Shown here in pieces: positions 7,846 to 39,254 of a stretch of 43,709 bases of DNA. The translations under genes were made by a program, and so were the position numbers. The stretch is taken from the sequence record OZ035797.1. The stretch is one strand, 5' to 3'. This stretch comes from Vectrevirus T147P1. How positions within the stretch are numbered: the stretch's first letter is position 1; each line of letters begins with the position of its first letter. The notes under the pieces were generated by a model. The model was not told where the DNA came from. It saw only the letters and a list, made by a program, of their open reading frames with translations, and did no database searches.

Positions 7846-7849
7846 GCAG

Positions 7850-8700
7850 GTTAATATCTTAGTGTACACAAGGGCAGACCTAGGTTTGCTCTTAGTGTAT
7901 TTACAATGGAGGTCTTATGTATATACCTATTGAAGCAATAGTAGGTTGCCTATGTTTGTTGATAGGTTTCGTTATAGGCGTAATAGCAAAGCCTTAGTAC
8001 TGTACAAGGATTAACCAAAGTCAAAATTTTGATATAGGCGTGTGTCAGCTCTCTCGCCCTCGCCCTCGCCGGGTTGTCCCCATATGGGGTCGGTCGGCGG
8101 TTGACCTAGGAATTTGGCGGGGCGGGTCCGTCTTCAACCTGCTGCCGCAGGAAGCTCGACGGGTGGGCGAGGGCTTGCCTTGTACTCGCTTAGTGGTACA
8201 CAAGGAGAACGCCTAGGAAGCGCTAGGGCACGCCTTAGTATTGGACAAGGTGATTGCCTTAGTTCAACCGCTTAGAGCTTACACGGGCCGTTTTAGGGCC
8301 ATTCCTGAGCGTTTGACAGGGTGTGAGGGCGTGGGCTATCTGTTCGTTTCGTTCACTCCGCTTGCGCTACGTTCACTCGCTCACGTGTACCTTAGGTTAT
8401 TCCTTGATGGATAGCTTAGGTTAGCCTTAGTGGATTACCTTAGTTAAAGCCTTAGTGCTTCACTTAGTATCAGCTTAGTAGTGTACCTTAGTAAGTATTA
8501 GTGTCTTCTCTTAGTGATTGCACATGCAAGCATGTAAGATGCCATTAGGTCGCGGTCGGTAGACCGCTAAAGAAGGAGAATAGTAATAAGATGCAGTAGG
8601 AGGAACACCCGAAACCTAGCCAACCTAGCCTATCCTAGCTCTGTATCTATTGCTTTTCCTTAGTCTAACATGTGAGACAACCTAGATTTATCTTAGTGAT
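7850..8700. repeat. genome terminus-like non-coding region with short repeats
   Basis: no long ORF; two copies of CTTAGTG(G)TACACAAGG near 7859 and 8189; GC-rich island with CTCGCC x3 (8053-8070) and CCCCATATGGGG (8078-8089); >10 copies of CCTTAGT/GCTTAG within 8230-8520; resembles the T7 left-end architecture. Confidence 0.5.
8664..8679. repeat. degenerate copy of the palindromic hairpin family
   Basis: GTCTAACATGTGAGAC, one substitution from the GTCTCACATGTGAGAC palindrome. Confidence 0.35.
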
Positions 8701-8712
8701 GATATCTTAGTG

Positions 8713-8741
8713 TTGACAAGGCCATCTCAATATAATACTAT
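8713..8741 (+). promoter_or_regulatory. host sigma70-like early promoter candidate
   Basis: TTGACA, 17-nt spacer, TACTAT; position corresponds to T7 early promoters near the left end. Confidence 0.45.
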
Positions 8742-8842
8742 TCATCACGTAGGCAGCACTGAGGTGCTTAGTAGCCAGCTAGTAAGGCATACGAAGAGAC
8801 TAGCGCTTACATTGCTCTTTAACAATTTGCTTAGTGTAACCT

Positions 8843-9666: not shown

Positions 9667-9999
9667 ATGGAACGCAATGCTAACGCTTACTACAACCTTC
9701 TGGCTGCAACTGTTGAAGCATTCAACGAGCGTATTCAGTTTGATGAGATTCGCGAAGGTGATGATTACTCTGATGCACTACATGAGGTTGTAGACAGCAA
9801 TGTTCCAGTTTATTACAGCGAAATCTTTACAGTGATGGCTGCTGATGGTATTGATGTTGATTTTGAGGATGCTGGTTTGATTCCTGACACGAAGGATGTA
9901 ACCAAGATTCTACAAGCTCGCATCTATGAAGCTCTTTATAATGATGTACCAAATGACAGCGATGTAGTTTGGTGTGAAGGCGAAGAAGAGGAAGAATAA
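9667..9999 (+). CDS. ocr: Ocr (gp0.3) DNA-mimic anti-restriction protein
   Basis: 110 aa, acidic; DEIREGDDYSDALHEVVDSNVPVYYSEIFTVMAADGIDVDFEDAGLIPDTKDVTKILQARIYE aligns closely to T7 Ocr as recalled; poly-Glu C-terminus. Confidence 0.9.
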   Translation: MERNANAYYNLLAATVEAFNERIQFDEIREGDDYSDALHEVVDSNVPVYYSEIFTVMAADGIDVDFEDAGLIPDTKDVTKILQARIYEALYNDVPNDSDVVWCEGEEEEE

Positions 10000-14002: not shown

Positions 14003-14034
14003 AGGCCATTCCTTCGGGAGTGGCCTTTCTTTTA
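14003..14034 (+). terminator. early intrinsic terminator after the RNAP gene (TE-like)
   Basis: GGCCATTCC-TTCG-GGAGTGGCC hairpin with UUCG loop followed by TTTCTTTT. Confidence 0.6.
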
Positions 14035-14449: not shown

Positions 14450-14668
14450 ATGGCTAAATACAGAATCAAGACCTGTTTAAATAGTCACGGGCAAGAGTTC
14501 TACGTAGTGCAACGTAAAGTATTAGGCTTAATATGGGTCACTTGTATGATGCCTATTGGCTATACTGATACAGAGGCTATCTTCTGCACCGAAAGGGATG
14601 CAAAGAAGTTTATCTCTAAGCGTAGAAAAGCTGACTCTTACCAACCTAGAATTATTAAGGTGAACTAA
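14450..14668 (+). CDS. hypothetical protein
   Basis: 72-aa ORF between the gp1.1-like gene and primase/helicase; 4-nt spacing upstream, overlapping stop/start downstream. Confidence 0.5.
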   Translation: MAKYRIKTCLNSHGQEFYVVQRKVLGLIWVTCMMPIGYTDTEAIFCTERDAKKFISKRRKADSYQPRIIKVN

Positions 14669-16656
14669 TGGCTATTATTAATAACATCCCGTGCCCTGCC
14701 TGTCAAAAGAATGGACATGATATTACTGGCAACCATCTTATGATATTTGAGGATGGCGCTGGTTACTGTAACCGTGGTCACTTCCATGATAATGGTAAGC
14801 CTTATTACCATAAGCCAGAGGGTGGTATCGAGATAACCGAATTGCCTATTACTGGCAATATCAAATATACACCTTCTCAATTCAAAGAAATGGAGAAGGA
14901 AGGGAAGATAAGCGACCCTAAGCTACGCGCCATCGCTCTTGGTGGTATGCGTATGAAAGACCGTTGGGAGGTCATGAATGAGCAAGAAAGGGCAGACCAA
15001 GAAGCAGAGTGGAAACTTGATGTTGAATGGTTCCTCACGCTTAAGCGTAAGAACCTTGTTTCCAGACACATTCGCGGCGACATTTGCGCATTGTATGATG
15101 TACGTGTCGGACACGATGAAGAGGGTAGAGTCTCGCGGCATTACTATCCACGCTTCGAGAAAGGTGAGCTAGTAGGAGCTAAGTGTCGCACATTACCTAA
15201 AGATTTTAAGTTTGGTCATTTAGGTAAACTCTTTGGTATGCAAGATCTTTTCGGTATGAATACTTTGTCTCACGTGTTAGACAAGGGGAGACGAAAGGAT
15301 TGCTTGCTTATTGTAGGCGGTGAACTTGATGCACTAGCAGCGCAGCAGATGCTCCTTGATTCTGCCAAGGGTACTAAGTGGGAGGGTCAGCCATACCATG
15401 TATGGTCTGTCAACAAAGGTGAGTCTTGCCTTGAAGAGATAGTGCAGAACCGTGAGCATATCGCCCAATTCAAGAAGATTATATGGGGTTTTGATGGAGA
15501 TGAGGTAGGGCAGAAGCAGAATCAGCAAGCGGCTCGCCTGTTTCCTGGCAAATCCTATATCCTTGAATACCCCTCTGGTTGCAAAGATGCTAACAAGGCA
15601 TTGATGGCTGGCAAGGCTAAAGAATTTGTAGATGCATGGTTTAATGCCAAGTCATCTGATGAAGTCTTTGGTAGCCAGATTAAATCTATCGCATCTCAAA
15701 GGGATAAGCTCAAGGCTGCACGTCCAGAGCAAGGACTATCATGGCCTTGGCCTAAGCTGAACAAGGTAACGCTAGGTATTCGTAAGAACCAGCTTATCAT
15801 TGTAGGTGCAGGGTCTGGTGTAGGTAAGACTGAGTTCCTTCGTGAAGTAGTTAAGCACCTCATTGAAGAACACGGTGAATCTGTAGGCATCATTTCTACA
15901 GAAGACCCGATGGTCAAGGTGTCCCGTGCTTTTATCGGCAAGTGGATTGATAAGCGTATTGAGTTACCGCCAACCAACGACCCGAAAGAAGACGGATACC
16001 GTGAGGTGTTCGACTACACCGAGGAAGAAGCTAACGCCGCCATTGATTATGTAGCTGATACAGGTAAGCTGTTTGTAGCTGACCTAGAGGGTGACTATTC
16101 GATGGAAAAGGTAGAGCAAACTTGCCTAGAGTTTGAGGCTATGGGCATTTCTAATATCATCATTGATAACTTAACGGGGATTAAATTAGATGAGCGTGCT
16201 TTTGGTGGGAAGGTTGGTGCACTTGATGAATGCGTCAAGCGGATTGGTACTATCAAAGACCGACACCCGGTTACTATATTCCTTGTATCACACCTTACAC
16301 GTCCTCCGGCAAACCGTACCCAACACGAAGAAGGTGGCGAGGTTATCCTTTCTGACTTCCGAGGCTCAGGCGCTATCGGATTCTGGGCATCTTACGCCTT
16401 GGGGATTGAGCGTAACACAAGAGCTGAAACGCTTGACGAAAGGACTACCACGTACATCTCATGTGTCAAAGACCGCGACCAAGGTATCTACACTGGAACC
16501 AAGGTCATGCTTAAGGGTGACATTCAAACCGGACGTTTAATGGAACCACAAGCCCGTACTAAGTCATTTGATACAGGTGAAGCAAGGCAACAAGAAGTAC
16601 CAGATTTACCGGACACTATAGAAGAGACTAACTTCGATGAAGAAAGTGAGTTCTGA
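14668..16656 (+). CDS. DNA primase/helicase (T7 gp4-like)
   Basis: 662 aa; N-terminal zinc ribbon CPACQ...CNRGH; Walker A GAGSGVGKTE; acidic C-terminus ending EESEF. Confidence 0.9.
   Translation: MAIINNIPCPACQKNGHDITGNHLMIFEDGAGYCNRGHFHDNGKPYYHKPEGGIEITELPITGNIKYTPSQFKEMEKEGKISDPKLRAIALGGMRMKDRWEVMNEQERADQEAEWKLDVEWFLTLKRKNLVSRHIRGDICALYDVRVGHDEEGRVSRHYYPRFEKGELVGAKCRTLPKDFKFGHLGKLFGMQDLFGMNTLSHVLDKGRRKDCLLIVGGELDALAAQQMLLDSAKGTKWEGQPYHVWSVNKGESCLEEIVQNREHIAQFKKIIWGFDGDEVGQKQNQQAARLFPGKSYILEYPSGCKDANKALMAGKAKEFVDAWFNAKSSDEVFGSQIKSIASQRDKLKAARPEQGLSWPWPKLNKVTLGIRKNQLIIVGAGSGVGKTEFLREVVKHLIEEHGESVGIISTEDPMVKVSRAFIGKWIDKRIELPPTNDPKEDGYREVFDYTEEEANAAIDYVADTGKLFVADLEGDYSMEKVEQTCLEFEAMGISNIIIDNLTGIKLDERAFGGKVGALDECVKRIGTIKDRHPVTIFLVSHLTRPPANRTQHEEGGEVILSDFRGSGAIGFWASYALGIERNTRAETLDERTTTYISCVKDRDQGIYTGTKVMLKGDIQTGRLMEPQARTKSFDTGEARQQEVPDLPDTIEETNFDEESEF
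16604..16626 (+). promoter_or_regulatory. phage RNAP promoter inside the 3' end of the helicase gene
   Basis: ATTTACCGGACACTATAGAAGAG. Confidence 0.6.
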
Positions 16657-16673
16657 TTAGTGTATTTATCAGG

Positions 16674-16697
16674 GCTTGTCTCACATGTGAGACAGGC
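16674..16697. repeat. palindromic hairpin element (family copy C)
   Basis: GCTTGTCTCACATGTGAGACAGGC; 18-bp perfect palindrome core plus flanking pairs, followed by TCTTATT. Confidence 0.6.
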
Positions 16698-16732
16698 TCT
16701 TATTAAGTACATTAAATAACTGGAGATTAACT

Positions 16733-17820: not shown

Positions 17821-17844
17821 GGTTGTCTCACACGTGAGACAGCC
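17821..17844. repeat. palindromic hairpin element (family copy D)
   Basis: GGTTGTCTCACACGTGAGACAGCC followed by TTTCAT. Confidence 0.6.
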
Positions 17845-21131: not shown

Positions 21132-21509
21132 ATGTCTATGGTAACTACTCTGGTATTTGTAGCTCAATACTTTCGTGGTCTGGCTAATAAGTTCAAGTCC
21201 AAGGCTATCAAAGCTATTGAGTCTCGCATCGAGGCAGTACAGGCAGAGCAAGTTAAAGTTGAAGAACATCGTAGTTCTCAAATGATTGACTGCCATAACC
21301 GCTACTATGAATCTCGTGATGACCTTAATGCACGCCAAGTCAAAGAGGTTGAAGAGATGCTGGCACGTCACCAGCAAGAGCGCGACAGCCTGAAAGCTGA
21401 ATTTGAAGAGAACAAGGCATCCATCGCCCTTGTACATCAAGCCGCATCTGACAGCCTGAAGAAAGAGATTGTTATGCTGGAAATTGAGTTAGACAACCTG
21501 ACCAAATAA
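21132..21509 (+). CDS. hypothetical protein (hydrophobic N-terminus, coiled-coil-like)
   Basis: 125-aa ORF after TAGGAGATATAAAC. Confidence 0.5.
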   Translation: MSMVTTLVFVAQYFRGLANKFKSKAIKAIESRIEAVQAEQVKVEEHRSSQMIDCHNRYYESRDDLNARQVKEVEEMLARHQQERDSLKAEFEENKASIALVHQAASDSLKKEIVMLEIELDNLTK

Positions 21510-21530
21510 TTACTGGACACTATAGAACAA
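21508..21530 (+). promoter_or_regulatory. phage RNAP promoter
   Basis: AATTACTGGACACTATAGAACAA. Confidence 0.65.
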
Positions 21531-21586: not shown

Positions 21587-22393
21587 ATGGCACGTGGTGA
21601 TTTTGATTTTGGTGCTCAGGTTACTAAAGCTGAAGGTAAGGTTTTTAAGAACCCTGAAGTTGGTGATCATGAAGCAGTAATCTCTGGCATCATTCATGTG
21701 GGTTCCTTCCAAGATATCTTTAAGAAAGGTAATACCACTGAAGTTAAGAAGCCAGCAAACTTTGTTCTTGTTAAGATTGTACTGATGGGTGACGATGACA
21801 AGAACGAAGATGATTCTCGCATGGAACAATGGATGGCTGTTCCTCTGAAGTCTGGTGATAAGGCAACACTGACTAAGTTCCTGAATGCAGTTGACCCCAA
21901 AGAATTGCTTGGTGGCTTCGATGATTTTATCGGGGAATGCCTGACTGCAACTATGGTTGGCTCTGGTGACAAGAATGACGATGGTTCATTCAAGTATGTT
22001 AACTGGAAAGGATTCGGTGGTATGCCTGACAAGCTTAAGAAACTTGTCATTGCTCAGGTTGAAGAAGAGGGTCTGTCTATGACAGGTCACATCACCTTCG
22101 ACAAGCTGACCAAAGAAATCCTTGATGACATTCCTGCTAACTTGGTACGCCAATACTTCCTTAATGAAACACCTCGTGGTAAGAACCTGTCTGTTGCTGG
22201 TTCTCACGTAGAAGCAATCATTAAAGCTGCTCGTGAAGAAGACCCAGAGTGGAAGAAAGCCAAGAAGAAAGATGACGAGGATGCTACTCCAGCTAATCGT
22301 AAATCTCTGGATACTGGTGAGTCTGTTCCACAGGAAGTACCTGAAGCAGAAGATACTCCTGCACCGGAGATGGATGAGGACGCGGAATATTAA
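21587..22393 (+). CDS. hypothetical protein with acidic C-terminal tail (possible ssDNA-binding or replisome accessory protein)
   Basis: 268 aa after TAGGAGACTAAATAA; C-terminus ends EMDEDAEY; size compatible with a gp2.5-type SSB but no direct similarity recognised. Confidence 0.5.
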   Translation: MARGDFDFGAQVTKAEGKVFKNPEVGDHEAVISGIIHVGSFQDIFKKGNTTEVKKPANFVLVKIVLMGDDDKNEDDSRMEQWMAVPLKSGDKATLTKFLNAVDPKELLGGFDDFIGECLTATMVGSGDKNDDGSFKYVNWKGFGGMPDKLKKLVIAQVEEEGLSMTGHITFDKLTKEILDDIPANLVRQYFLNETPRGKNLSVAGSHVEAIIKAAREEDPEWKKAKKKDDEDATPANRKSLDTGESVPQEVPEAEDTPAPEMDEDAEY

Positions 22394-22402
22394 GGAGAAA
22401 GG

Positions 22403-22621
22403 ATGAAAGTACAAATCGTAACCCTGCACTGCAAGAAAGGTATCACAACGCTCGGAGGTGGCACTTTCCACTCTTTCTCCGAAGGGGAGATTTATGCTGA
22501 CCTGCACTACATCTGGCGCGACGGACAGCACGTGGTGAACTACAGCGACCCAGCTACGGGGAAACGCCACGGCGTATCGCTTCCGGCGCATGACATTGCT
22601 CAGGTGAACACAGTTTTATAA
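22403..22621 (+). CDS. hypothetical protein
   Basis: 72-aa ORF after AAGGAGAAAGG. Confidence 0.5.
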   Translation: MKVQIVTLHCKKGITTLGGGTFHSFSEGEIYADLHYIWRDGQHVVNYSDPATGKRHGVSLPAHDIAQVNTVL

Positions 22622-22622
22622 A

Positions 22623-22638
22623 GTCTCACGTGTGAGAC
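22623..22638. repeat. palindromic hairpin element (family copy E, reverse-orientation centre)
   Basis: GTCTCACGTGTGAGAC, upstream of the promoter at 22654. Confidence 0.6.
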
Positions 22639-22653
22639 AAATCGGTGTCCGGT

Positions 22654-22676
22654 ATTTACTGGACACTATAGAAGAG
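22654..22676 (+). promoter_or_regulatory. phage RNAP promoter
   Basis: ATTTACTGGACACTATAGAAGAG exact consensus. Confidence 0.75.
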
Positions 22677-22726
22677 AAGAATTTTAATCGGTGATAATGC
22701 CATAACCAACAAAAGGAGAATTTAAT

Positions 22727-23098
22727 ATGTTCAAGATTGAAACTATCGTAAACCGTGTTGTTAAAGGTGCTGCTCTGGTATCCGTTGAGTCTTTCATTAT
22801 CGTCGATGAAGCTGATCAACTGGTAGCTGGTACTAAGGCTTACGATACCCGTGAAGAAGCTCAGGCTAAGATTGACAGCATGGGTAACTTCGCTGCTGGT
22901 CTGGAGTTCGCTCGTGCTTGCTTCCCTGAGCAGGCTGACAAAGCTCAGATTGGTAAGGCTAATATCGTAGCTGAATATCTGGATTGGGTTGCTGCTGGTA
23001 AACCAGTGAAAGAAGTTAAGGCTGCTGAAGAAGCTGAAGCTCCAGCAGAAGAAGTAGCTGCACCGGAAACTCCGGTAAGCGAAGAGGAAGAATTTTGA
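22727..23098 (+). CDS. small acidic protein with C-terminal EEEEF tail; function unknown
   Basis: 123 aa; strong SD AAAAGGAGAA; own promoter upstream and terminator-like hairpin downstream. Confidence 0.6.
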   Translation: MFKIETIVNRVVKGAALVSVESFIIVDEADQLVAGTKAYDTREEAQAKIDSMGNFAAGLEFARACFPEQADKAQIGKANIVAEYLDWVAAGKPVKEVKAAEEAEAPAEEVAAPETPVSEEEEF

Positions 23099-23157
23099 TA
23101 ATAGCAGGTGTTGCCTCTGTTAGTCCTGGTTGACTATCACGCTCACCTCATCTAATG

Positions 23158-23190
23158 CCCTGTCTGCCTTAGTGTAGGCAGGGTCTTTTG
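23158..23190 (+). terminator. terminator-like hairpin after the small acidic protein gene
   Basis: CCCTGTCTGCC-TTAGTGTA-GGCAGGG followed by TCTTTTG. Confidence 0.45.
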
Positions 23191-23215
23191 CGTAATAGTT
23201 ATTGGAGAATGAATT

Positions 23216-23512
23216 ATGCCGACTATTGAATCTCGTTTACGCGCTGACTATAATAGATACTTTAGCCGCTTACATAGGGATTATATGACACACGTTACAG
23301 TATGGTTAGATGGTGAGATATTCTTAGTGTATGAGTATTTACATGATACGGATGACCGCTATGACCCTAGTTCCTTCCAAGTAGCAAAGTCTATTGTAGA
23401 GCACATCTTGAAGGAGTGGCCTACATGCGACCAAACTTCGACTTCGGAGCTACAGTATCGGAAGACAATAACCTGTTGCTGTGGCCAACTGAAGGTAATA
23501 GAATCGCTTTAA
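23216..23512 (+). CDS. hypothetical protein overlapping the exonuclease start
   Basis: 98-aa ORF after TTGGAGAATGAATT; 3' ~90 nt overlap the exonuclease gene in another frame. Confidence 0.35.
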   Translation: MPTIESRLRADYNRYFSRLHRDYMTHVTVWLDGEIFLVYEYLHDTDDRYDPSSFQVAKSIVEHILKEWPTCDQTSTSELQYRKTITCCCGQLKVIESL

Positions 23513-24848: not shown

Positions 24849-25848
24849 GCTTCGCAGCTTGTACAAAGACTCCGAGGTACTTGATGCAATCGAGCAAGCT
24901 ACCGACGAGAAAGGTAATGTTAATTACAATGAGATGGCACGTGTATTATCGTGTCACCCTGTGGGTAAGAAGATTACCCGCCAGTTGGCTCGATACTGGC
25001 ATGGTCAATTCAAGAAGACCAAGAAGAATGGTGATTATTACCAGACCCTTCTGCAAGAAGATAAGCGTATCAAAGAAGAGCGTAAGCTCAGGACTCCTGA
25101 CCGCTACGAGGATTTGGCTATTGTACCATTGCCTGACTCGCCTCATCGAAGTGTACTGGTAATCCCTGATACTCATGCACCTTATGAGCATCCAGATACC
25201 TTAGAGTTCCTTGCAGCAGTCGCGGCACGTTACCGTCCAGATACAGTGGTTCACTTAGGAGATGAGGCAGATAAACACGCCCTCTCCTTCCATGACTCTG
25301 ACCCGAATCTGGATAGTGCTGGCATGGAGCTAGAGAAGTCTCGTGTCTTCATGCACAAATTGCACAAGATGTTCCCTGTGATGAGACTGTGTCACTCCAA
25401 CCACGGCTCTATGCACTTCCGTAAGGCAAGCGCTAAGGGCATCCCTGTGCAATACCTGCGCACCTACCGTGAAGTCTTCTTCCCGCAGGGAGGTGGCGAC
25501 CAGTGGGATTGGCAACATACGCACGTCCTTGAGTTGCCGAATGGTGAACAAGTGGCATTCAAGCATCAACCTGCTGGCTCTGTCCTAGCAGATGCAGCGC
25601 ATGAGCGTATGAACCTTGTGTGTGGTCACTTGCACGGTAAGATGTCTGTGGAGTACGCACGTAATACACATGAACAGTATTGGGCTGTGCAAGGTGGCTG
25701 CTTAATTGATGAGTCATCCCGTGCATTTGCCTATGGTCGTGAGTCTAAATACAAGCCAGCATTAGGTTGTGTGGTCATTCTGGAGGGTGTACCTCATATT
25801 GTCCCGATGCAAACCAATAGCGACAACCGTTGGATTGGCAAGATTTAG
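24841..25848 (+). CDS. calcineurin-like metallophosphoesterase
   Basis: TTG start at 24841 after AAGGAGG (the track ORF from 24709 overlaps the previous gene); motifs IPDTHAPY, HLGDEAD, HSNHG, GHLHG. Confidence 0.65.
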   Translation: MGKLRSLYKDSEVLDAIEQATDEKGNVNYNEMARVLSCHPVGKKITRQLARYWHGQFKKTKKNGDYYQTLLQEDKRIKEERKLRTPDRYEDLAIVPLPDSPHRSVLVIPDTHAPYEHPDTLEFLAAVAARYRPDTVVHLGDEADKHALSFHDSDPNLDSAGMELEKSRVFMHKLHKMFPVMRLCHSNHGSMHFRKASAKGIPVQYLRTYREVFFPQGGGDQWDWQHTHVLELPNGEQVAFKHQPAGSVLADAAHERMNLVCGHLHGKMSVEYARNTHEQYWAVQGGCLIDESSRAFAYGRESKYKPALGCVVILEGVPHIVPMQTNSDNRWIGKI

Positions 25849-25865
25849 TTGACACTATAGAACAA
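25843..25865 (+). promoter_or_regulatory. phage RNAP promoter variant
   Basis: ATTTAGTTGACACTATAGAACAA; differs from consensus at -12 to -10. Confidence 0.5.
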
Positions 25866-25948
25866 AGGGCTAGGTAAGACTTTATCGGCTGGCGTATCCA
25901 AATGATATTGCACTAGCCCTTGATTGTATAGTGAATGGAGGATTCAAT

Positions 25949-26452: not shown

Positions 26453-26627
26453 TATGGAAGGTAAACTGTATAGAGGGTACTTTGGTAACTTATATAAAGT
26501 AAGCCCTCGCGGTTTTGTATTGACCTCTAACGATGAAGGTGTAACGTGGTATTTAAGTGCCTATGGTTCTGACTTAGCGTACTTTAAAGAGGCAATAGTC
26601 AAAGGTGTGATGAAGGAGGTGAAATGA
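26439..26627 (+). CDS. hypothetical protein
   Basis: 62-aa ORF overlapping neighbours at both ends. Confidence 0.4.
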   Translation: MRIFDMEGKLYRGYFGNLYKVSPRGFVLTSNDEGVTWYLSAYGSDLAYFKEAIVKGVMKEVK

Positions 26628-27571
26628 ATATCTTCCAATTCCTAGGCCTTCCAGAAGGCCACCGCAACCACCCATTCATGCTGGTGAAGCATCGCGGTGA
26701 AGTACCTGAGAAGAAACTAACATTTCCATGTTATGCACAGGTGAAACGAGATGGTATCTTTTCTGCTGTTGTTGTTCGCACTGATGGTGTCGTTGGCATT
26801 TTTGGTCGCACTGGTAAGAAACTGGCAAACACTGAAGGCCTCGAACAAACATTTGCTACCTTTCCGGTTGGCATTTATCTTGGTGAGCTTCAGTCTATGG
26901 CCATTGATATCTACCTTGAGGCAATCTCTGGGGTTGTGAACCCTAATCGCACTGAGCCACTTGATTTCATAGGCCAGCAGATTAAAGACAACCTGTATAT
27001 CGACTTCTTCGATATGTTAACTATTAAGGCATTCCATGATGGATTCACTGATGTTTCTTATCTCAAACGTTACGATGCTTTACATCGCCGCATCGGCGCT
27101 CATCTTAGCGGGTACAACGCTATCCTTCCTATTACTCCTTGCCATAATGAGCGAGAAGTTGAAGCGTTTGCGCAAGAGCAGATAGACGCAGGCCGAGAAG
27201 GTGCTGTGTTTAAACTGGACTGTGATTATGAAGCAGGACATAAAGGTTATCGTCAGACTAAAGAAGTCCGTAAGGTAACTTATGACCTTACTTGTATTGG
27301 CTTTGAAGAAGGTAAAGGCAAATACAAAGGTAAGGTAGCTAACCTCATTTTCAAATGGAAAGGAGGCAAGACAATCAAAGCTATGTTAGGTAAGGGGTGG
27401 ACTCATGCAGATGCAGAACAGATGTTCCACGACATTAAACATGGTGGACGATTGAATGTCATTGGTAAAATCTTTGAAGTCAAAGGTCTTCAGGATTCAA
27501 GCAAGGGCAACATTCGTCTGCCCAAAGCGGGAGAATTAAGACATGACAAAGATGAACCAGATTTCTTTTGA
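26624..27571 (+). CDS. ATP-dependent DNA ligase (T7 gp1.3-like)
   Basis: 315 aa; adenylation motif KRDG in YAQVKRDGIF; size and fold pattern of small phage ligases. Confidence 0.7.
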   Translation: MNIFQFLGLPEGHRNHPFMLVKHRGEVPEKKLTFPCYAQVKRDGIFSAVVVRTDGVVGIFGRTGKKLANTEGLEQTFATFPVGIYLGELQSMAIDIYLEAISGVVNPNRTEPLDFIGQQIKDNLYIDFFDMLTIKAFHDGFTDVSYLKRYDALHRRIGAHLSGYNAILPITPCHNEREVEAFAQEQIDAGREGAVFKLDCDYEAGHKGYRQTKEVRKVTYDLTCIGFEEGKGKYKGKVANLIFKWKGGKTIKAMLGKGWTHADAEQMFHDIKHGGRLNVIGKIFEVKGLQDSSKGNIRLPKAGELRHDKDEPDFF

Positions 27572-27758
27572 TAGCATGAAGGCAACTCGTGCAGTTGAGG
27601 TAGCAGAAGCTATCTTTGAAACTTTATCCTGTGGCATGGAAGTGCCATATACTTTACTTGCTGATGCAGAAGAACTTGGTCTTTCTGTAGAAGCTATCCA
27701 AGAGAAGGTTGACGAATTATATGGTACAGACGAAGAAGAAACCGACGATTTCATTTGA
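27543..27758 (+). CDS. hypothetical acidic protein
   Basis: 71-aa ORF overlapping the ligase 3' end. Confidence 0.45.
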   Translation: MTKMNQISFDSMKATRAVEVAEAIFETLSCGMEVPYTLLADAEELGLSVEAIQEKVDELYGTDEEETDDFI

Positions 27759-31046: not shown

Positions 31047-31069
31047 ATTTACTGGACACTATAGAAGGG
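31047..31069 (+). promoter_or_regulatory. phage RNAP promoter upstream of the capsid gene (phi10-like)
   Basis: ATTTACTGGACACTATAGAAGGG exact consensus; downstream strong SD TAAGGAGA. Confidence 0.8.
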
Positions 31070-31119: not shown

Positions 31120-32328
31120 ATGTCTACACCGAATACTCTGACTAACGTTGCTGTATCTGCATCCGGTGAGGTTGACAGCCTTCTCATTGAGAAGTTTAAT
31201 GGTAAGGTCAATGAGCAGTACCTGAAAGGTGAGAACATTCTGTCCTACTTTGATGTACAAACTGTTACTGGCACTAACACAGTGAGCAACAAATATTTGG
31301 GCGAAACTGAGTTGCAGGTGCTAGCACCGGGTCAGTCTCCTAATGCCACCCCTACTCAGGCGGATAAAAACCAGTTGGTAATTGATACCACTGTCATTGC
31401 TCGTAACACTGTGGCTCACATCCACGATGTACAAGGTGACATCGATAGCCTGAAACCAAAACTGGCTATGAACCAAGCCAAGCAACTGAAACGTCTGGAA
31501 GACCAGATGGCAATTCAGCAGATGCTGTTAGGCGGTATTGCTAACACCAAGGCCAAACGTAACAAGCCGCGTGTTAAAGGGCATGGCTTCTCTATCAACG
31601 TTAACGTAACTGAGAGTGAAGCACTGGCTAACCCTCAGTATGTTATGGCTGCGGTAGAGTATGCTCTGGAGCAACAGCTTGAGCAGGAAGTGGACATCTC
31701 TGATGTAGCTATCATGATGCCGTGGAAGTTCTTCAATGCTCTGCGTGATGCAGACCGAATTGTAGATAAGACTTACACTATCAGCCAGTCTGGTGCAACC
31801 ATTAATGGCTTCGTTCTCTCTTCTTATAACTGCCCTGTGATCCCGTCTAACCGATTCCCTACCTTCGCTCAGAATCAGGCTCACCACCTGTTGTCTAATG
31901 AAGATAACGGCTATCGTTATGACCCTATCGCAGAGATGAATGGTGCAGTTGCTGTTCTGTTCACTGCCGACGCACTGCTGGTGGGTCGTACCATTGAAGT
32001 GACTGGTGACATCTTCTATGAGAAGAAAGAGAAGACTTATTACATTGACACCTTCATGGCTGAGGGTGCAATCCCTGACCGTTGGGAAGCAGTGTCTGTA
32101 GTTACCACTAAACGTAATGCAACTACTGGTGCTGCTGAAGGTTCTGGTGATGATCACGCAACCGTACTGGCTCGTGCACAGCGTAAGGCTGTATATGTCA
32201 AAACCGAAGGTGCTGCGGCTGCATTCTCTGCTGCCCCAGCAGGTATCCAAGCGGAAGACCTTGTAGCGGCGGTACGTGCTGTAATGGCAAATGACATCAA
32301 GCCGACTGCAATGAAACCTGCTGAGTAA
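31120..32328 (+). CDS. major capsid protein, gp10-like
   Basis: 402 aa; strong promoter and SD upstream, hairpin terminator downstream; position after scaffold. Confidence 0.85.
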   Translation: MSTPNTLTNVAVSASGEVDSLLIEKFNGKVNEQYLKGENILSYFDVQTVTGTNTVSNKYLGETELQVLAPGQSPNATPTQADKNQLVIDTTVIARNTVAHIHDVQGDIDSLKPKLAMNQAKQLKRLEDQMAIQQMLLGGIANTKAKRNKPRVKGHGFSINVNVTESEALANPQYVMAAVEYALEQQLEQEVDISDVAIMMPWKFFNALRDADRIVDKTYTISQSGATINGFVLSSYNCPVIPSNRFPTFAQNQAHHLLSNEDNGYRYDPIAEMNGAVAVLFTADALLVGRTIEVTGDIFYEKKEKTYYIDTFMAEGAIPDRWEAVSVVTTKRNATTGAAEGSGDDHATVLARAQRKAVYVKTEGAAAAFSAAPAGIQAEDLVAAVRAVMANDIKPTAMKPAE

Positions 32329-32335
32329 TACCTAT

Positions 32336-32370
32336 GCCCTATCTACCTTGCGTAGGTAGGGTTATTTTTG
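32336..32370 (+). terminator. phage late terminator after the capsid gene (Tphi-like)
   Basis: CCCTATCTAC-CTTGC-GTAGGTAGGG hairpin followed by TTATTTTTG. Confidence 0.7.
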
Positions 32371-39228: not shown

Positions 39229-39254
39229 GGCTTGTCTCACATGTGAGACAGGTC
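39229..39254. repeat. palindromic hairpin element (family copy F)
   Basis: GGCTTGTCTCACATGTGAGACAGGTC between gp15-like and gp16-like genes, followed by TTTATG. Confidence 0.6.

Follow-up and report, generated by a model that had tools for sequence, protein, structure and literature searches.

In T7-like phages, middle proteins that act stoichiometrically are normally made in large amounts; T7 gp2.5, for example, has a class II promoter of its own and is highly expressed. The closest described counterparts of the locus reported here are two capsid units, phi10-gene 10-T-phi of T7 and gene 32-t5 of SP6, in which a strong promoter, a good ribosome-binding site and an open leader precede a codon-adapted open reading frame and a class I hairpin with a U-run. 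T-phi and t5 stop the phage polymerase partly, and downstream genes get less. We know of no second terminator of this sort in the class II region of T7. For t5, SP6 RNA polymerase was found to stop at about 85% in vitro (Song et al. 2024, PMC11347151). The name t5 itself implies that several SP6 terminators have been catalogued, and the genome paper on the SP6-like phage UAB_Phi78 gives 4 or 5 predicted terminators at the same positions as those of SP6, among them terminators 3' of genes of unknown function (PMC4837284).

Several proteins of the T7 replication module, gp2.5 and gp4, carry disordered acidic tails with an aromatic end, as do three proteins of the genome described here. The tail of gp4 ends in Phe, and acidic tails ending in Phe are also found on proteins with other partners, such as E. 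coli SSB, whose tip reads ...DDDIPF. The tails of T7 gp4 and gp2.5 bind basic patches of the DNA polymerase, namely a front basic patch and a patch on the thioredoxin-binding domain, and compete with each other (PMC12339929; bioRxiv 10.64898/2026.05.20.726333); for gp2.5, the terminal Phe is named in titles cited in PMC12339929.

Gene 18 and its genomic context

The window analyzed here is the complete, circularly permuted genome (43,709 bp) of an SP6-like Vectrevirus of the K1-5/K1E type (Autographiviridae, Molineuxvirinae). DNA identities of 97.6 to 99.5% were found with Vectrevirus genomes, K1-5 and EEc2 among them; for the 1-kb stretch around the gene of interest, identity is 99.5% to the Escherichia phages EEc2 and KMB14 and 97.6% to K1-5. 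By sequence comparison, the open reading frame at 22727-23098 (+ strand) is gene 18 of K1-5 (YP_654119.1) and gene 20 of SP6, without annotation in either phage. Its product (gp18 in K1-5, gp20 in SP6) is, as originally predicted, an acidic protein of 123 aa (pI 4.3), and the TGA stop codon is followed by in-frame TAA and TAG codons. The gene order runs from DNA polymerase through small open reading frames, gp15, gp16 (268 aa) and gp17 (72 aa) to gp18, and continues with a variable gp19 (“DNA repair protein”), an exonuclease, an endonuclease VII and a metallophosphoesterase. Gene 18 is placed in a DNA-metabolism block, with the DNA polymerase on one side and the exonuclease on the other, a position that fits its designation as a middle gene. 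Judged from its predicted elements, the interval 22654-23190 is the gene 18 transcription unit, from promoter to terminator.

Promoter, leader and terminator

A predicted phage-RNA-polymerase promoter of the SP6/K1-5 type, ATTTACTGGACACTATAGAAGAG, was identified at 22654-22676 on the + strand. Promoters of this type precede a gene on its coding strand and follow a consensus of about 23 nt, ATTTA(C/G)(T/G)(G/T)GACACTATAGAAG; this site is an exact match to the 23-nt query, with 2 exact copies genome-wide and 0 expected by chance. The genome contains 13 phage-polymerase promoters with a ACACTATA core, every one of them on the + strand, and the gene 18 promoter agrees with the internal 26-nt consensus of these 13 at 25 of 26 positions, tied for best; the consensus phage promoter of the original prediction was therefore borne out. 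We infer from the sequence that the transcript starts at G22671, the G after TATA.

A perfect 16-bp palindrome, GTCTCACGTGTGAGAC (22623-22638, + strand), is found 2 nt past the gp17 stop codon and 16 nt ahead of the promoter, and had been counted as part of the gene 18 cassette. The element is present, but the GTCTCACNNGTGAGAC palindrome has 8 dispersed copies in the genome (0.15 expected by chance), the majority of them intergenic; as one of these eight, it is a genome-wide repeat and not specific to the gene 18 unit. Kindred palindromes precede the homologous promoter in SP6, Proteus PM85, Pectobacterium PP1 and Vibrio AS51. The predicted leader (22671-22726, + strand; 56 nt) is A/U-rich and carries the SD AAGGAG at 22713-22718, 8 nt from the ATG. 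With a folding energy of -4.3 kcal/mol, the start region (-35 to +35) belongs with the most open ones of the genome (capsid gene, -3.8 kcal/mol). The SD had been described as strong; by the energy of its duplex with the anti-SD (-8.7 kcal/mol), it ranks only 17 of 45, in the middle of the field.

Downstream of gene 18, a class I-type intrinsic terminator is predicted at 23157-23190 (+ strand), with an 11-bp stem of the GCCCTGTCTGC/GCAGGCAGGGT type and a 6-nt loop. The hairpin (23157-23184; -17.8 kcal/mol) is retained when the full transcript is folded and leads into the U-run CUUUUG (23185-23190), which has only 4 U. It shows the features by which class I terminators are recognized, a stable G+C-rich hairpin with a U-run immediately after it and a structure conserved over sequence at the homologous position. 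A hairpin with a U-tract had been placed directly after the stop codon; both are there, but the hairpin starts 58 nt past the stop, and the identical hairpin in SP6 starts 5 nt past it.

A stringent scan of the + strand for canonical hairpin-plus-T-run terminators right after genes returned three only, at 14003, 23157 and 32336. The terminator at 14003-14026 (+ strand) follows the RNA polymerase gene, which has no promoter of its own immediately upstream. The third, GCCCTATCTACCTTGCGTAGGTAGGGT plus U-run (32336-32369, + strand; hairpin 32336-32362), follows the capsid gene (31120-32328, + strand), which has its own adjacent promoter at 31047. An own adjacent promoter combined with a strong terminator is found at gene 18 and the capsid gene only, in agreement with the original prediction. 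The two terminators are relatives in sequence: 2 pair changes and 1 loop base separate the gene 18 hairpin (GCCCTGTCTGCC...GGCAGGGT) from its capsid-gene counterpart (GCCCTATCTACC...GGTAGGGT), and the two stem pairs are A-T in the capsid terminator and G-C in the gene 18 terminator. On this comparison, the two hairpins are paralogues. The stem-loop of the capsid terminator has exactly the sequence that the supplement of PMC11347151 gives for the SP6 t5 template. The t5 tail, UCUUUUG, is nearly the same as the gene 18 tail, CUUUUG. Because t5 terminates at about 85%, a failure of the gene 18 hairpin to terminate the phage RNA polymerase appears unlikely. A search of the whole 43,709-nt genome against Rfam returned 0 families.

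The suggestion that a middle gene with such an arrangement is unusual was overstated, because bulk middle proteins are normal in T7-like phages. T7-type phages ordinarily regulate their genes in this way, and published SP6-like genomes have shown the design since 2004. For an SP6-like phage, terminators at SP6 positions that follow genes of unknown function were already reported (PMC4837284), and, given the prior annotation in UAB_Phi78 and SP6, the regulatory elements are not new. The gene 18 unit differs from those of T7 gene 10 and SP6 gene 32 in its product, a 123-aa protein from the DNA-metabolism block and not a capsid protein.

Conservation of the unit and distribution of gp18

We examined the arrangement in 37 IMG/VR loci with a gp18 homologue, 36 of which had enough downstream sequence for the terminator count. 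A hairpin of -14 kcal/mol or stronger with a T-run no more than 130 nt past the stop codon was found in 35 of these 36 loci, compared with 4 of 120 other open reading frames in the same loci. A TATAG(A/G)(A/T) core was present upstream of the homologue in 33 of 36 loci. The terminator stems vary in sequence between lineages, with pairing maintained. Nine annotated relatives from two subfamilies all have a strong hairpin plus T-run 0-58 nt past the homologue's stop codon, and eight of the nine also have a lineage-specific promoter motif about 50-65 nt upstream of the homologue; the sole exception is Marinomonas CB5A, in which no promoter motif was evident upstream of the homologue. The promoter-gene-terminator arrangement is conserved in the two subfamilies.

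The gp18 family itself is narrow, with 27 cluster representatives (50% identity) among 1.84 billion proteins. It was found in 212 phage records, SP6-like throughout (Molineuxvirinae and Colwellvirinae), and tblastn and profile searches found relatives only in SP6-like phages. The hosts of these phages include Escherichia, Salmonella, Klebsiella, Proteus, Erwinia, Pectobacterium, Vibrio, Pseudomonas, Marinomonas, Aeromonas and Shewanella. gp18 is a core gene of the two subfamilies, with fixed synteny across at least 10 host genera. Among the annotated records listed, it is labelled hypothetical, with the exception of OR594181.1, which uses head-protein labels; further records among the 212 carry no annotation for it. 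We rejected a structural or scaffolding role, which those names suggest, as the labels look misplaced in view of the “hypothetical” entries for this sequence in every other record and the location in the replication block.

Codon usage and expected expression

Gene 18 has the highest E. coli CAI of the 45 genes (0.668; capsid gene 0.496, gp16 0.484), with gp15 and gp16 at ranks 3 and 4. GCT accounts for 22 of the 24 Ala codons, and every Gly, Leu and Arg is encoded by the preferred codon. Synonymous resampling of gp18 at genome-average usage gave a CAI of 0.374 ± 0.037; the observed value is 8 SD higher and was reached by 0 of 10,000 resamples, and the bias is found in the folded part and the tail alike. 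The E. coli CAI weights followed the Sharp and Li table, and we repeated the test with weights from each phage's capsid gene. This capsid-referenced CAI, which is independent of the E. coli weights, left the ranking of gene 18 unchanged and placed the gp18 homologue first in 5 of 5 genomes: the Vectrevirus genome, SP6, Erwinia phiEa100, Pseudomonas Nerthus and Vibrio AS51.

High expression of gene 18 is a well-supported prediction, drawn from three independent lines: codon usage, the conserved arrangement and the measured paralogue of the terminator. Expression at the level of the capsid protein, which had been proposed from the arrangement alone, gains support from the CAI rank (1 of 45), the five-genome ranking and the conservation of the arrangement. 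Expression, termination or binding data on gene 18 homologues, in any phage, were not found in the searchable literature. The phage vB_Eco_K1B4, which has a published transcriptome, is a Kagunavirus.

The terminator and the downstream nuclease genes

Downstream of the terminator is a block without a phage promoter (23216-25848, + strand), consisting of the gp19-like “DNA repair protein,” exonuclease, endonuclease VII and metallophosphoesterase genes. No promoter core was found between 22662 and 25851; the promoter that follows occupies 25843-25868 (+ strand; 26 nt), with the conserved core at 25851-25863. The phage polymerase should therefore reach the nuclease block only via read-through of the gene 18 terminator. 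Since this terminator is the sole stop signal between the class II promoters and the nuclease block, it can be regarded as an attenuator of the downstream genes as much as the end of gene 18, and it probably also restricts transcription into the promoterless nuclease genes. The CAI of the genes in this block is 0.20-0.28 (ranks 27-45 of 45). Gene 18 does have a promoter and a terminator of its own, but to call the cassette self-contained was too strong, given that the palindrome is dispersed and that the terminator would also attenuate the nuclease block.

We propose that, through this unit, gp18 is produced in larger amounts than any other class II protein and that, by the logic of T-phi behind gene 10 of T7, only a fraction of polymerases would pass the terminator into the gp19, exonuclease, endonuclease VII and phosphoesterase genes. 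The bulk proteins (gp15, gp16 and gp18) would in this way be split from enzymes needed sparingly. That gp18 is the top class II product, and that the terminator limits flow into the promoterless nuclease genes, is in our view quite probable. Gene 18 may also collect read-through that started at class II promoters further upstream. Part of this transcription might be stopped by the extended palindrome hairpins at 16672-16699 and 17821-17844, and the cumulative read-through into gene 18 is for this reason uncertain.

The gp18 protein and its acidic tail

An AF2 model of gp18 has a pLDDT of about 85-92 for residues 1-95 and below 50 for residues 98-122, which are disordered. The model consists of a beta-hairpin and three helices, with no OB fold. 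As modelled, gp18 is a folded domain of ~95 residues followed by a disordered acidic tail ending in ...PVSEEEEF. Sequence and profile searches of the PDB returned no relative of the domain among solved structures, and gp18 had no match in Pfam, NCBIfam or PADLOC; its only PHROGs match was phrog_4429, to which no function is assigned there. The folded part (90 residues) contains 14 D/E and 9 K/R residues, and direct DNA binding by the domain is not suggested because of its net charge of about -5; the lysines K37, K72 and K77 are conserved. In the tail, 11 of 33 residues are acidic. A terminal F or Y is present in at least 90% of 79 diverse homologues, while the rest of the tail is variable yet always acidic, with endings such as EEEEF, EAEEY, GEDF, DEEF and ETFE.

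We also considered the small DUF1508/UPF0339 (PF07411, YegP-like) domains, for which the scores were below every threshold: Vectrevirus gp18 had no Pfam hit, and the best PF07411 E-value among gp18 homologues was 0.031, in 4 of 79 members. gp18 differs from DUF1508 by two additional helices and the acidic tail, and the likeness would explain nothing, since DUF1508 has no known function.

Two other proteins of this genome carry tails of the same type: the primase-helicase, which ends in ...ETNFDEESEF (16627-16656, + strand), and gp16 (21587-22393, + strand; 268 aa), which has its own promoter at 21508-21530, a high CAI and the tail ...MDEDAEY. Of 49 proteins, only these two and gp18 end in an aromatic residue and have, among their last 10 residues, 5 that are acidic and 0 that are basic. 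The trio recurs in SP6, Ea100, Nerthus and AS51; in the SP6 helicase the Phe stands three residues before the C-terminus, and gp16 (...EQEFGE) and gp18 (...ETFE) of Nerthus continue past the Phe. The distribution of gp16 is close to that of gp18 (215 vs 212 phage records), and both keep a conserved synteny next to the exonuclease and endonuclease VII genes. gp16 had no match in Pfam or the PDB, and a profile search and Pfam scan of 9 homologues were also empty. In NCBIfam it had a sub-threshold match to “phage replication initiation protein NGO0469” (E value 8.5e-4, 18.9 bits vs a cutoff of 75), and its single-sequence structure model was uninformative (pLDDT 39). Comparison of gp16 and gp18 with T7 gp2.5 by hhalign found no similarity (probability 0.35% for gp18). 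When the Vectrevirus DNA polymerase was compared with T7 gp5 by BLASTP, the palm/fingers and part of the exonuclease domain aligned, and no more.

Because its tail type is shared with the primase-helicase and gp16, as it is between T7 gp4 and gp2.5, we propose that gp18 would be a stoichiometric accessory of the replication/recombination machinery, whose tail would bind the DNA polymerase or vie for it with the tails of the helicase and gp16. By analogy with T7, such a tail-docking role is a tentative proposal to which we give rather less than an even chance. The docking target is a guess, since Phe-ending acidic tails serve other partners too. A wider reading would have a “three-tail” replisome in SP6-like phages, made up of the primase-helicase, a gp2.5-like gp16 and a very abundant gp18 of new fold docking on the polymerase, where gp18 would serve as a processivity or bridging factor or as a competitor timing polymerase exchange. 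We regard this wider reading, likewise drawn by analogy, as unlikely; to our knowledge, the T7 replisome has no third tail-bearing counterpart of gp18. The best explanation overall, a high-expression unit whose product is a replisome accessory, is one that we hold to be about evenly balanced between right and wrong.

Alternative explanations

Several features of gp18 would also suit a factor for host takeover or anti-defence, made in bulk as a mimic of DNA or of the SSB tail so as to titrate RecBCD or the binders of the SSB C-terminus. It is small, has a pI of 4.3 and is apparently very abundant, its ...EEEEF end resembles the tip of E. coli SSB, and it has no known fold, as is common for such inhibitors. 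Its gene lies between those of the DNA polymerase and the exonuclease, where T7 encodes gp5.5 and gp5.9, the latter an acidic protein that targets RecBCD and acts stoichiometrically; gp18 shares genome neighbourhood, small size and high expression with these two, but no sequence similarity, and gp5.5 and gp5.9 are accessory genes. Phage proteins that inhibit host proteins usually vary and are tied to particular hosts, whereas gp18 is a core gene that keeps its synteny throughout Molineuxvirinae and Colwellvirinae, with hosts from Escherichia to Vibrio, Pseudomonas and Marinomonas. DNA mimics such as Ocr and gp5.9 combine a densely acidic folded surface with an accessory, host-specific gene, and gp18 has neither, its acidity being mostly in the tail with a domain of only about -5. 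The early region of SP6, moreover, has an annotated Ocr-like gene, of which the acidic 110-aa early open reading frame at 9667-9999 is probably the counterpart, as a putative homologue. With no PADLOC match and a tail of the type carried by the phage's own helicase and gp16, a role against the host seems quite unlikely. A further reading takes gp18 itself as the phage SSB, with a non-OB fold and an abundance that comes from coating ssDNA. The layout of domain, linker and Phe-ending acidic tail is that of T7 gp2.5 and E. coli SSB, an SSB annotation is absent from all 212 records, K37, K72 and K77 are conserved, and the phi29 SSB is comparable in being very abundant and about 124 aa long. Of the attributes of a gp2.5-like SSB, however, gp18 has the acidic, aromatic-ended tail and lacks the OB fold and the sequence similarity (beta-hairpin and three helices in the model; 0.35% by hhalign), and its folded domain is net negative. 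gp16 is at least an equal candidate, being nearer gp2.5 in size, with the same tail and high codon adaptation, though likewise without detectable similarity; we consider gp18 very unlikely to be the SSB.

The remaining alternative concerns the hairpin, which might be an mRNA 3'-end stabiliser or processing product, or might stop host RNA polymerase only, so that the phage polymerase reads through and gp18 abundance would rest on translation alone. The U-run is short (4 U), the intergenic hairpins of the palindrome family are clearly not all terminators, and the record of Vibrio phage AS51 annotates three terminators, none of them after the gp18 homologue. These points are outweighed, in our view, by the near-identical tail of the paralogue t5 with its termination of about 85% in vitro, by the two extra G-C pairs of the gene 18 stem relative to t5, by the T-rich tail that adjoins the hairpin in 35 of 36 loci and by the predicted terminators of UAB_Phi78 at SP6 positions (PMC4837284). 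Read-through of this kind by the phage polymerase is accordingly a highly improbable account of the hairpin.

Implications

What appears to be new is that gp18 is the most codon-adapted protein in the five SP6-like genomes compared, that it is a core gene of two subfamilies and that it shares its tail type with the helicase and gp16. The searchable literature, a body that excludes the 2004 SP6 and K1-5 genome papers, yielded no prior mention of the gene's rank in codon usage, of its conserved tail or of the tail trio. Being compact, the gene 18 terminator is a candidate for use with SP6-type polymerases, and the complete gene 18 unit offers a natural template for driving high expression with SP6 RNA polymerase. 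If the reading of gp18 as a replisome accessory is true, gp18 would be a missing component of a widely used therapeutic and biotechnological phage family (K1-5, K1E and SP6), one against which the T7 model of polymerase docking by tails could naturally be compared.

Dispersed palindromes and the gene 18 unit

Gene 18 (22727-23098, + strand) encodes the 123-aa gp18 with its acidic tail. The window carries a dispersed family of the palindrome GTCTCACNNGTGAGAC, a 16 bp element with copies at 8663, 14069, 14249, 15267, 16678, 17825, 22623, and 39234. Six of these are perfect and two carry one mismatch, versus 0.15 copies expected in the window. Nearly all are intergenic, and many lie immediately 3' of a stop codon or adjoin a phage promoter. 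Three longer copies form hairpins of 24-28 nt (16672-16699, 17821-17844, and 39229-39254). In SP6, Proteus PM85, Pectobacterium PP1, and Vibrio AS51, related palindromes precede the gp18 promoter. These elements could serve as hairpins for RNA processing or stability, act as weak terminators, or form a site for protein binding. The copy at 8663 falls within a segment of about 1 kb (7846-8842) in which no ORF is called; this segment probably represents the genome ends or a terminal repeat plus the early promoter region of a permuted genome.

The gene 18 leader contains a small stem-loop (22688-22702) that is kept across Molineuxvirinae, with GGT-N6-GCC in the window compared to GGC-N6-GCC in K1-5, SP6, PM85, and PP1. 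At its other end, gene 18 closes with a triple in-frame stop, TGA TAA TAG, back to back (23096-23156 region). In K1-5-like genomes, the stop and the terminator are set apart by a spacer of approximately 53 nt; SP6 does not have this spacer, and its hairpin begins 5 nt past the stop. The published annotation of Vibrio phage AS51 (NC_047737.1) lists three terminators, none of them after the gp18 homologue. We found at 15320-15355 of that record, following the homologue, a hairpin GCCCTGCCGCACTAGATGCGGTGGGGC and then UUAUUUUU, resembling the capsid terminator of AS51 itself.

Downstream, DNA-level conservation in SP6, PM85, and PP1 covers the gene 19 leader and its opening codons (23190-23240, GTAATAGTTATTGGAGAATGAATTATGCCGACTATTGAA). 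As similarity between the window and many Vectrevirus genomes ends at approximately 23230-23240, the alignments suggest a recombination breakpoint just within gene 19. One matching record, OR594181.1 (Escherichia phage vB_EcoM_SHAK7704; match to 22400-23235), names the features over gp18 and the neighboring 72-aa gp17 "similar to major head protein" and "similar to head scaffolding protein." These labels are at odds with all other records and with gene position, and the annotation is probably shifted.

Proteins with acidic C-termini

Acidic C-termini containing Phe were also observed in a 71-aa protein (27543-27758; pI 4.05, codon adaptation index rank 5; ...TDEEETDDFI) and a 315-aa ligase-like protein (26624-27571; ...DKDEPDFF). 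The 268-aa gp16 (21587-22393), a core protein that carries no annotation, occurs together with gp18 and has its own promoter and a high codon adaptation index. All nine of nine gp16 homologues carry an acidic tail with a final Tyr or Phe, and the primase-helicase (14668-16656) has a tail of the same kind. An SSB or annealing protein is otherwise missing, and gp16 stands out as the obvious candidate for that role.
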